Shown here one piece after another: positions 45,001 through 48,000 of a stretch of 64,000 nucleotides of DNA. The DNA is taken from IMG/VR virus record IMGVR_UViG_2939521961_000018. The stretch is one strand, 5' to 3'. Origin of the DNA: a virus. Its lineage: Duplodnaviria > Heunggongvirae > Uroviricota > Caudoviricetes. Positions within the stretch are counted from its first letter, which is position 1, and every line of letters begins with the position of its first letter. A program made the position numbers.

Positions 45001-48000
45001 CATCGACCGGATCGCACCCGATGATACAGCACGTTTACGTGTAGGGGTCTAAACAGGTCATTGACGCTGTAAAGCTCCAGATTGTTAAAGAGCATTTTGC
45101 GGCGGGTTAAGTCGCGCCGTACGACTGATTTATGTAGCCCTGTGTAAGGGCGCGATGTTTCTGGCTTGGGTAAAATATAATAAGTGCAACTGATCATAGT
45201 CAATAGCGAGACTAATAATCTGGTTTAATTTTAATCTATGTGGTTGATTTTTAGATTAATTTATTTATGTAAAAAATATAAGCGAGGATAATGAAGATGG
45301 AGGATGCGTAAAGAAAAACCGGCGCGGGGGCCGGTTACTCTGTGTGAGATTTGGCGTGAGGGAAAAGCCCCCTGATAACACCAAGAAAAGCAGCGAACAG
45401 ATTCAGAGTTGAAGCAGCGGTCACCGCAATGAGCACTTCATCTGAAAAGATTTCTTTCCCCATGACGCGGCCTGTTGCAGACAACAACAAAACACTAGCC
45501 CACCAGTAAAGCCCATACTTGGCAACTTTATAGGCTTTTTCTGCAAATTTTTCTCTTAATTCCCTGTTAGATTTTGCATCTGCTGCGCGCTGGGCGTTTA
45601 AATTATCTCCATCTGATGAAGATTCTGTTGTTGGTGGCGTATCTTCAAGGCTTGATATATCTGTGCCTGGAAATGCTGCTCCGTTCGGGATTGTGATTTT
45701 TTCAAGTTCAGACATCAATGAATGTGGTTTGCCATATCAGTATGAAGAATTGGGCCACCATCAGGTTGACCTTTACTCCAGGCCGCGTTTGGTGCATGGG
45801 TCATGTTAGAAAGCTCGGTTCCGCTGTAGCTGCCGTATACCTCAACAATTCTGTCGATCAGCCTCCTGGTTTCTGTGTCACCCTTCTGTATTGTCGGTGT
45901 GATTCGTTTCCATTCCCCATCTGAATCAATGATGATGCTGATCATTTCCTGTATTTCATCGCCCCCATATTTCTTTAACATGTGGTACAGGTGCGGTATT
46001 ACAGGCCCGTAAGGCCAGCGCGCAAACAGATCGTCGAATAATGGCCTTCCGTTGAATAGTTTCAGATGCCACGACTGAGTATAGAACAACAATTTTTGTA
46101 GCTTCATCGGAGTTAAATCTTTGATTTCTCCCCGTTTAGCCTTATCAATAAAGGCGTTAGCTACGGCAGCAGCTGAATATGCCATGCTCTACTCCGCATT
46201 TTGCGAAATTAAATGTATCACCGGAGAGAATACAACAAAAAGCAAATTAGCAAAACTGATAGAGAAAGTCGGAAGCAAAAAAACCAAGAAGCGAACAGCA
46301 GTAACGAGTCAAATAGAACCCTGCGGGGTTGGTGGTTTTTGACAAAAACACTGCATGTAACTATAATTAGTTACAGTGTAGCGAAGATGAGATTATGTGG
46401 GCATGGGGAAAGCAGATAAGCTACTGGCAAAATTTTTAAACAGTAAAAAAACGTTTGAATGGGATGAGCTGGTCGTTTTGTTTTCCTCTCTGGGATATGT
46501 CAAAAAGGAAATGCAGGGGTCAAGAGTGCGGTTTTTCAATGCTGAAATCAACCACACCATATTAATGCATCGCCCTCATCCGGAAAGTTATGTCAAAGGT
46601 GGCACGTTGAAAGCGATTAAACAGAATCTGAAAGAGGCTGGGGTATTATGAAGCATCTAAAATATAAAGGATATTTAGGTACAGTTGAACCAGATTTTGA
46701 AAATAATATCCTCTATGGAAAGCTGGCATTTATTCGGGACTTGGTAACTTATGAGGCTTCTACGTTAGCTGAACTGGAAAAGGAGTTTAAAACATCAGTT
46801 GATCTGTATTTACAGTCTTGTGTGGAGGATGGAAAGGAACCTGATACCCCGTTTAAAGGCGTGTTTAACGTCCGGCTTGATCCCGAACTGCATCGTCGGG
46901 TAGCAGAAATGGCGATGGAAGAAGATTTATCACTGAACGCATTTGTTAATAAGGCGCTGGAAAAAGAAGTCAACCATCACACAGGGGCTTAATGTCACCT
47001 TCGTCTTTGACATCCTCACCGACATGAAGAACTGGTTTTACGGCACACCGGATAAAGGCCGCGAAAGCGGCCTTGTTTTTAGCGAATTCCACCACCGCCA
47101 GGACGAGAATCAGAAGAACGGCCACCACAACGAGAGCCGTCAGCAGCAGTATCATTGTCGTGCTGGCAATTACCCGCGAATGATTGAGTCGAAGCTACCA
47201 GTGACAACAAGACGAACAATGCAGCAAATGCTTTTTTCATGTAAGACACCTTATTTTAGGTTTTGGTAAGCTCAAATAATGCCCGAAAAGTGCATCCCTG
47301 CAAGGTTATTGATATCGCTCTGTGAGCTCAATCAAAAGTCTCATCATTCCACTGCGACTTTATGACTTTTCCGACAAACTGGCAGTTTTCGTTACACTCA
47401 ATCATGTCGAATCGTGGGTTGAGTGGCTCCAGGTACGCTTTACCGCTCTCACGAATGAATCGTTTGAAGGTGAATTCATCGCCGTTCATTCGGGCCACGC
47501 AAAAATCGCCATCCTCGATTTCCCGTTCAGGGTCAACGAGTATCAGCATCCCTTCAGGGAAACTGGGTTTACCACCCTGCGGCGCGGTCATTGAATGCCC
47601 CTTGACCTCCAGCCAGAACGACCTGTCACTGGCTTTTGTGGTGGTGGAGATCCACTTAATCGCATCCTTTGCGGTGTACGAAAAATCATCCATTGAGAAA
47701 GCTCCAGCCTGTACGCAGGAGAGTAACGGATATTCGTAATATTTCTCGAACAGGTTACGCCTGTTTCCCGGTGTGTGGGTACGAATACTGCGTAACAAAT
47801 CACTCAGATCTGGATTAATTTCTTCCGCAGGAACCTGTAATAAAGCCGCAAACTTAAGGGTATTTTCAGTATTTAACGCAATTTTTGCGTTCAATAACTG
47901 ACTAACAGCCCCCTGCGTTTTGAAGCCGAGGATATCTGCGGCTTTTTCCTGGCTTAGGGATAGCTGTTTCCGTTTTTCATCCCAGATTTTGCGCAGTCGT

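Follow-up and report, generated by a model that had tools for sequence, protein, structure and literature searches.

A hicAB toxin-antitoxin cassette with a putative HicB operator beside the repressor gene of a lambdoid prophage

The hicAB genes and their products

The stretch of DNA analysed here, called the window, comprises the 64,000 nt of the virus record IMGVR_UViG_2939521961_000018 (Caudoviricetes) and carries two short genes that an earlier reading made from the sequence alone (the sequence-only reading) had proposed to be a hicAB toxin-antitoxin (TA) pair. Positions 46200-47300 of the window were 100% identical to positions 1485088-1486188 of the Escherichia coli JNEC-KY204 chromosome (NZ_AP045180.1), in which RefSeq already labels the two products HicA and HicB. 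The pair is therefore known and annotated, and it has a near-identical, characterised relative on the IncX4 plasmid p14EC007a (NZ_CP024132.1). On the evidence given below, the locus is very probably a self-contained, autoregulated type II TA cassette of the HicA^O^B subfamily that lies beside the repressor gene of a lambdoid prophage. The features of the region are listed in Table 1.

Both predicted open reading frames (ORFs), 46397-46651 and 46648-46992, were present in the window. A profile search for the two families, as proposed in the sequence-only reading, placed both products above the curated cut-offs: HicA matched PF07927 (HicA_toxin) with 43.6 bits (gathering cut-off 27) over profile positions 1-58 of 58, while HicB matched PF05534 (HicB) with 71.1 bits (cut-off 21) and Antitox_RHH below the cut-off. 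When the products were compared with PHROGs, HicA was assigned to phrog_8887 ('toxin', E = 1.4e-34) and HicB to phrog_9151 ('HicB-like antitoxin', E = 2.1e-50), with Arc-like repressor families matching HicB as well. No NCBIfam model matched HicA, and the NCBIfam matches of HicB were all below threshold.

The identification of a HicA-like toxin was thus upheld, but its start codon had to be moved. RefSeq and all homologues place the start of hicA at the ATG at 46403. The GTG at 46397, from which the ORF had been read, was set aside as the main start for lack of conservation: the IncX4 plasmid and the other homologues do not have this in-frame GTG, and the plasmid and distant proteins begin with MGK or MSK. 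An 8-nt near-duplication was found at the hicA start of the prophage alleles (46393-46410, ATGTGGGC ATGGGGAA) and was missing from the IncX4 and other homologues. It gives rise to the in-frame GTG at 46397 and also to an out-of-frame ATG at 46395 that opens an overlapping ORF of 14 codons.

The folds of the two proteins were compared by means of AlphaFold models, built from 11 homologues for HicA (pLDDT 91.5) and from 37 homologues for HicB (pLDDT 84.5). The HicA model consists of helix 20-29, strands 33-36, 41-46 and 51-56 and helix 66-79, an alpha-beta-beta-beta-alpha arrangement resembling the domain that binds double-stranded RNA (dsRBD), and is preceded by an additional helix (residues 3-13) within an N-terminal extension of about 18 residues that lies outside the Pfam match (residues 22-83). 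Its best Foldseek matches were TTHA1913 (1whz) and B. pseudomallei HicA (6g26_E/F, 4c26), with probabilities of 0.72-1.00 and target-normalised TM-scores of 0.59-0.72 at E-values of only about 0.02-0.6. In the HicB model, beta-strands within residues 4-37 and a helix at 40-60 form the N-terminal toxin-binding HicB (partial RNase H-like) fold, which matched 6g1n, 6g26_A/B (B. pseudomallei HicB), TTHA0281 (2dsy), 6u0i, 3k6q and 6g1c with probabilities of 0.85-1.00 and modest E-values. The tail of HicB, with helices 79-91 and 96-112 after an FNVR segment, matched CopG (1ea4, probability 0.97) and Arc (1bdv, 0.95), both of the ribbon-helix-helix (RHH) type, in agreement with the RHH tail that had been ascribed to the antitoxin. 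Although the predicted models gave matches of modest E-value (about 0.02), the expected families stood at the top of both lists.

The two genes overlap by the tetranucleotide ATGA, suggesting that their translation is coupled, and a scan of 46403-46992 detected no terminator-like site inside the operon. The name HicA^O^B was given to the IncX4 pair for its overlapping ORFs and lack of an internal terminator (PMC11878559). In the window, too, the toxin gene comes first, the ORFs overlap, an internal intrinsic terminator is lacking and the proteins are close to those of IncX4: HicA was identical to p14EC007a HicA (WP_000520549.1) at 79 of 82 residues and HicB to p14EC007a HicB (WP_000681613.1) at 110 of 115, 96% in each case. 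The p14EC007a HicA is toxic in E. coli K-12 and completely neutralised by HicB (Lin et al. 2025, NAR, PMC11878559), and the hicA and hicB mRNA levels of that pair are equal (PMC11878559). The result that would have refuted the sequence-only reading, absence of HicA/HicB family matches and of toxicity, has therefore gone in favour of that reading as far as analysis outside the laboratory can show. The IncX4 pairs of p14EC007a and pJIE143 and the pair in the window have in common a promoter with 12/12 consensus bases, the operator core, the ATGA overlap and the absence of an internal terminator. They differ in location, the former being on conjugative plasmids and the latter in a chromosomal prophage beside cI; in the palindrome, which is perfect in the window (TGTAACTA/TAGTTACA) whereas one arm is altered in the IncX4 plasmid (TAGTTGCA); in the leader, where the window has the 8-nt near-duplication and a weaker Shine-Dalgarno sequence; and in their downstream terminators.

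The pair also resembles the structurally characterised HicAB systems. Toxin-first order is shared with B. pseudomallei (6g26, 4c26), Y. pestis HicA3B3 (4p78), S. pneumoniae HicBA (5yrz) and E. coli K-12, as are the dsRBD-like HicA fold, the N-terminal toxin-binding domain of HicB, an operator overlapping the -10 and, with the exception of E. coli K-12, the RHH tail. In contrast, sequence similarity to these systems is below phmmer detection, and the additional N-terminal helix of about 18 residues is a feature of the window HicA. The window pair has a single promoter and overlapping ORFs, whereas E. coli K-12 HicAB has two promoters and the IncI2 HicA^T^B pair has an internal terminator (PMC11878559).

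Table 1. Positions of the features in the hicAB region of the window
Feature	Position	Strand	Description and evidence
hicA	46403-46651	+	82-aa toxin, HicA^O (long-form, Gly-Ser-Arg) subfamily; PF07927; RefSeq WP_096858778.1
hicB	46648-46992	+	114-aa antitoxin; HicB fold about 1-60, linker, RHH about 72-112; PF05534
ATGA overlap	46648-46651	+	hicA stop/hicB start; read from sequence
hicAB promoter	46339-46367	+	-35 TTGACA 46339-46344, 17-nt spacer, -10 TATAAT 46362-46367; 12/12 sigma-70 consensus
Putative HicB operator	46356-46375		TGTAACTA-TAAT-TAGTTACA; 8+4+8 palindrome, arms 100% complementary
Weak upstream hairpin	46317-46340	+	AACCCTGCGGGGTT and T-run merging into the -35; likely upstream insulator or terminator
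Intrinsic terminator	47055-47080	+	AAGGCCGC-GAAA-GCGGCCTT followed by GTTTTT; 8-bp stem (47055-47074), 6 G-C pairs
Panacea-domain protein gene	45715-46185	-	PF13274 SocA_Panacea, 79.1 bits; divergent from hicAB
Panacea partner gene	45335-45715/45718	-	126/127 aa; phrog_33656, function unknown; RefSeq-annotated
53-aa membrane-anchored protein gene	47079-47240	-	RefSeq 'transmembrane anchored protein'; between terminator and cI
cI-type prophage repressor gene	47328-48047	-	HTH_3 and Peptidase_S24; Pfam/RefSeq; convergent with hicAB

Promoter, palindrome and terminators

The promoter upstream of hicA had been described as near-consensus. It was found on the plus strand, and the description proved too cautious, since all 12 bases agree with the sigma-70 consensus. 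It was the sole site with at most one mismatch in the 64-kb window (0.35 expected). The IncX4 plasmid shares this 12/12 promoter, as does the related E. coli 2015C-3121 prophage.

The -10 hexamer had been placed inside a GTAACT/AGTTAC palindrome. This palindrome was present and longer than described, with arms of 8 nt; the -10 hexamer makes up the end of the left arm together with the spacer, and the right arm spans the likely transcription start. No second copy occurred in the window even when three mismatches were allowed (0.09 expected). Ten loci, with HicA identities as low as 67%, kept the core TGTAACTA-N4-TAGTTACA between flanks that could not be aligned. The spacer was altered in Photorhabdus (CTGT or TTGT) with both arms retained, and in one metagenomic lineage both arms had changed symmetrically (TGCAACTA/TAGTTGCA).

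Conservation of the palindrome was also evaluated in 80 genomic loci encoding HicB relatives of 55-95% identity (Pasteurellaceae, Acinetobacter, Photorhabdus, Xenorhabdus, Nitrincola, Endozoicomonas, Thiomicrospira and others), in 66 of which a script detected a hicA-like ORF. A site was called when at least 14 of 16 positions agreed with TGYAACTA-N4-TAGTTRCA within 150 nt upstream of hicA. Such sites were present in 45 of the 66 loci, compared with a frequency of 7.6e-5 in shuffled upstream regions; many of these loci are related and hence do not represent independent events, although their flanks differ. The variable arm position was C/G in 29 loci, T/A in 4 and mixed T/G in 7, so that symmetric combinations predominate. 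Two residues of the beta-strand predicted for the HicB RHH domain, N74 and R76, were invariant or nearly so, consistent with a half-site common to the family. The experimentally defined operators of Y. pestis HicB3 and B. pseudomallei HicB likewise overlap the -10 hexamer (PMC11594946). Taken from sequence comparison, the palindrome is a convincing putative operator and the best-supported non-coding element of the locus; its autoregulatory role, as proposed in the sequence-only reading, is strongly supported by the conservation data, with TGYAACTA-N4-TAGTTRCA as the predicted HicB operator. The distance from the operator to the hicA start fell into two preferred ranges. One, of about 30-43 nt, includes the window; the other, of about 66-82 nt, was seen chiefly in Acinetobacter. 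The two ranges point to two kinds of promoter or leader within the family.

A clean terminator had been reported at 47056-47080, downstream of the pair. An intrinsic terminator was indeed found there, beginning one position earlier, with a folding energy of -19.2 kcal/mol (z = -3.07). Read on the minus strand, the hairpin is followed by UUUAUCC, a weak tail. Since the T-run is on the plus strand both in the window prophage and in the 2015C-3121 prophage, rightward transcription would be stopped before it runs antisense to the cI operon. The idea that this strong terminator is part of the hicAB cassette was rejected: homology to the plasmids ends at the hicB stop (46993), and in the 2015C-3121 prophage the same hairpin lies 1.28 kb from hicB and still adjoins the cI-side genes. 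For these reasons the terminator is regarded as an element of the prophage backbone.

On the other side of the operon, the weak hairpin upstream of the -35 was not significant by itself (z = -1.28). However, the layout of hairpin, T-run and TTGACA was also found, with other stem sequences, in the IncX4 plasmid and in metagenomic homologues. That the layout is kept while the stems differ suggests that the cassette is insulated from upstream read-through.

Toxin active site, proposed mechanism and alternative explanations

Every characterised HicA toxin has an essential histidine, which comes immediately behind a Gly-Ser turn where beta-2 begins. It is H24 in B. pseudomallei HicA (BpsHicA; PMC3969222), H36 in S. 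pneumoniae HicA (SpHicA; PMC6159526), H28 in Y. pestis HicA3, with essential equivalents in E. coli and S. meliloti (PMC11594946), and H24 in N. gonorrhoeae HicA (PMC12297915). The window HicA has Gly39-Ser40-Arg41 at this place. A profile search of 1.84 billion cluster representatives gave 1914 relatives with E <= 0.001, and 425 when the threshold was set to E <= 1e-10; residues were counted at 50% clustering in the query, the 150 search matches listed and two earlier homologues (n = 153). Among these, position 41 was R in 134, A in 10, G in 5, S in 2 and K and H in 1 each, and the sole member with His at 41 had Ala at 56. H56 was present in 149, P58 in 151, H59 in 152 and P60 in 143 of the 153, G39 and S40 being almost invariant as well. 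All 66 genomic hicA genes, including those of H. influenzae, encoded GS[R/K]...H[R/K/E]PHP, with Arg in 65 and Lys in one. Lys6 in the N-terminal extension was also nearly invariant across the subfamily.

Strands 41-46 and 51-56 form a hairpin in the HicA model. Judged by the DSSP strand register, this should place R41 opposite H56, as cross-strand neighbours that point to one face. H59 is the counterpart of the PHP histidine near the catalytic His in BpsHicA (PMC3969222); mutation of this histidine in gonococcal HicA was without effect (PMC12297915). A survey of HicA contexts (Gerdes 2024) does not discuss the catalytic residues. The missing His is a hallmark of the characterised mechanism and not of family membership by homology; it was not treated as a membership criterion because the H. 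influenzae loci of this subfamily also have Arg. The p14EC007a HicA carries the same GSR and HRPHP motifs and is toxic, so the protein works despite the Arg. A possible though not the more probable reading is that the HicA^O subfamily (prophage, IncX4 and H. influenzae) has a non-canonical active site: either the catalytic His now sits on the adjacent strand, or these toxins differ in chemistry or target from the characterised HicA mRNA interferases. The prediction from the comparative data is that H56 and H59, instead of the canonical His, carry the toxin activity.

As proposed for the whole locus, the consensus sigma-70 promoter would produce one mRNA for hicA and hicB, and the ATGA overlap would couple their translation, giving similar quantities of toxin and antitoxin. 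HicA would act as a small dsRBD-fold toxin that arrests growth and would be neutralised when bound by the N-terminal domain of HicB. The C-terminal RHH domain of dimeric HicB would bind TGTAACTA-N4-TAGTTACA across the -10 and the start site and thus repress the operon, while the backbone terminator would keep hicAB transcription from entering the cI operon in antisense. The RNase activity of the window HicA, the binding of HicB to the palindrome and the biological role are what we infer here. The role is likely to be weak addiction or competition, defence against superinfecting phages, or both.

Several results weigh against the interpretation as an active, autoregulated TA cassette. A phmmer search of all PDB chains returned nothing for HicA at E <= 10 and only a weak RHH match for HicB (the CopG-family structure 9kkd), and the HicB family profile did not find a HicB structure in PDB either; plain sequence searches having failed in this way, the folds were compared by predicted models. 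In a profile of 120 family members R41 aligns with position 24 of BpsHicA (the H24A site) and with H36 of SpHicA, and the Gly-Ser-His hallmark of HicA is accordingly broken in the window protein, which keeps Gly39-Ser40 and continues with Arg41. With Arg in place of the essential His, the canonical HicA RNase chemistry is not simply transferable, and no RNA-cleavage assay for any member of this HicA subfamily was found in the literature. The prophage hicA has a poor Shine-Dalgarno sequence and, from the 8-nt near-duplication, an extra out-of-frame ATG, which together may lower toxin translation and output from the prophage allele. The p14EC007a hicAB gave only a slight advantage in plasmid competition (PMC11878559), and the plasmid orthologue could be deleted without trouble according to the literature, indicating that addiction is weak. 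PADLOC yielded no match for HicA, HicB, the Panacea pair or the 53-aa membrane protein, and hence nothing that ties the locus directly to an established defence system.

The replacement of the catalytic His by R41 could also mean that HicA is a catalytically dead remnant, in which case the locus would consist of a HicB-type transcription factor and a passenger gene. Decay of hicA with hicB kept does occur in relatives (Avibacterium, Acinetobacter), and the script detected no intact hicA-like ORF in 14 of the 80 loci. However, the Arg variant is the rule throughout a large subfamily, as the counts for the matches listed and for the genome loci demonstrate; the near invariance of G39, S40, H56, P58, H59 and P60 indicates purifying selection on HicA; and a 96%-identical plasmid HicA with the same motifs is toxic in E. 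coli (PMC11878559). This explanation is therefore considered very improbable. Still less credit, practically none, can be given to the idea that promoter, palindrome and ORFs are a chance arrangement or mis-called ORFs. Although a single 12/12 promoter in 64 kb might arise by chance, given the expected number of sites with at most one mismatch, the conservation data refute this idea: hundreds of plasmids and genomes, and distant genera as well, have the complete arrangement, and profile and fold evidence back both HicA and HicB as proteins.

A further alternative accepts the TA pair as working and concerns only its selected role, which would be to shield the lysogen from other phages, through abortive infection or exclusion, and not to stabilise the prophage. 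The pair occupies the cI-adjacent slot held by rexAB in lambda and by hicAB in mEp234 and HK106, it adjoins the Panacea TA pair at a site where cassettes come and go between related prophages, and it should be expressed in the lysogen from its own promoter. The weak addiction phenotype of the plasmid orthologue and the enrichment of HicA domains in defence islands (PMC10865869) point in the same direction. On the other hand, a phage-defence phenotype has not been reported for this HicA subfamily, PADLOC did not recognise hicAB, and no targeted phage was found for the HicAB-like system of mycobacteriophage Adephagia. We hold a purely protective role to be possible, though not the favoured outcome, and return to the TA cassette with either or both of the roles named above.

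As a genome feature the locus is of little weight, being a routinely annotated TA cassette that is common on IncX4 resistance plasmids. It is nevertheless a clean example of a mobile, self-regulated cassette, consisting of promoter, operator and two genes, at a hot spot beside a prophage repressor. The subfamily is medically widespread (mcr-1 and carbapenemase plasmids) yet biochemically uncharacterised, and the remaining interest lies in the predicted operator and in an active site that departs from the canonical one in toxins as widespread as these.

Distribution, related systems and prophage setting

Homology to the IncX4 plasmids extends from 46336, just before the -35, to 46993, the hicB stop, with 91% DNA identity. 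The cassette was found in 444 of 5426 complete E. coli genomes, at 467 places on plasmids and 17 on chromosomes, and in 794 PLSDB plasmid records, of which 783 are predicted to be conjugative. Those carrier plasmids that are about 30-35 kb in size are of the IncX type (taxC, ddp1). Judged by this distribution, the hicAB cassette is evidently mobile. A megablast of positions 46200-47300 against 50,697 phage records gave no match, and relatives in phages were reached only by protein-level search, at 50% identity or less.

The complete cassette is also present, at 87.5% identity, in a second plasmid lineage of about 60-95 kb that occurs in E. coli, E. fergusonii and Salmonella. A fragment of 255 bp (query positions 294-548) is all that many other plasmids of some 60 kb keep, which suggests that these are remnants of the cassette. 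Decay of hicA beside an intact hicB was observed on an Avibacterium chromosome, where the hicA start codon has been lost (AGG). An Acinetobacter locus has a degraded hicA (RLRIRF instead of GSRVRF) without a start codon and lacks the operator. One metagenomic protein of 182 aa (P0214, from ENA), 65% identical to the window HicB, contains PF07927 and PF05534 in a single polypeptide; it represents either a true HicA-HicB fusion or an artefact, from a frameshift or from the assembly, at the ATGA overlap.

The presence of hicAB in a lambdoid immunity region is already known from phages mEp234 and HK106. In mEp234, HK106 and mEp506 (EF120460, EF120461, 'immunity region') hicAB shares with the window pair its position beside cI, and HicA (GSG...HEPHP) is likewise without the canonical His. 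The promoter region of these phages has TGCAACT-N7-AGTTGCA, with half-sites related to those of the window and a spacing that differs by one base. Their HicB is only 43% identical to the window HicB, and their hicAB is located between cI and pL and co-directional with cI, whereas that of the window is convergent. The family is named after the hif-contiguous hicAB locus of H. influenzae. HicB of that species (Q9LA69) shares 64% identity with the window HicB, and the H. influenzae loci encode a HicA with GSR...HKPHP; they differ from the window in being chromosomal outside a prophage and in having a weaker palindrome upstream of hicA (11/16).

The neighbouring genes are those of a lambdoid prophage according to RefSeq annotation, with exo, recT, gamL, a kil-like gene, ORF6N and Rha to the left and a LexA/cI-type repressor, a Cro-like HTH protein, a helicase, NinG, NinH and Q to the right. 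The repressor gene was found on the minus strand, as it should be if hicAB is convergent on cI as had been stated. Repeats resembling cI operators and common to the cI/cro and the hicAB/Panacea intergenic regions were sought in order to place pL, and none was convincing. The product of the 53-aa gene matched phrog_14503 ('membrane associated protein', moron category). It has a signal-peptide-like N-terminus, and its gene, directly downstream of cI in the slot of lambda rexAB, is kept in the related prophage of E. coli 2015C-3121.

The Panacea pair, which the sequence-only reading had joined with hicAB into a small TA island, is real, as judged by the PF13274 match, and the site is a hot spot for cassettes. 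In comparison with the 2015C-3121 prophage, which is 92-94% identical, the window is longer by a stretch of about 0.9 kb (45400-46293) with most of the Panacea pair on it. This stretch is flanked by an imperfect direct repeat of 13 nt (45388-45400 and 46286-46298, AAGCAGCGAACAG / AAGAAGCGAACAG). The 2015C-3121 prophage keeps about the last 66 nt of the Panacea partner gene (compared stretch 4915-5016), and the difference looks like a deletion in that prophage between short repeats. Conversely, the 2015C-3121 prophage has an insert of 1.28 kb between the hicB 3' region and the terminator (its positions 5765-7043, corresponding to 47052-47056 of the window) with two genes on the minus strand, one for an 'SDH family Clp fold serine proteinase' and one small ORF. 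The insert and the missing Panacea stretch between related prophages mark the cI-adjacent slot as a hot spot of cassette gain and loss. The Panacea partner had no match in Pfam, NCBIfam or PADLOC and matched phrog_33656 only. It contains two hydrophobic stretches and is a candidate membrane-acting toxin of a PanA/PanT-type pair.

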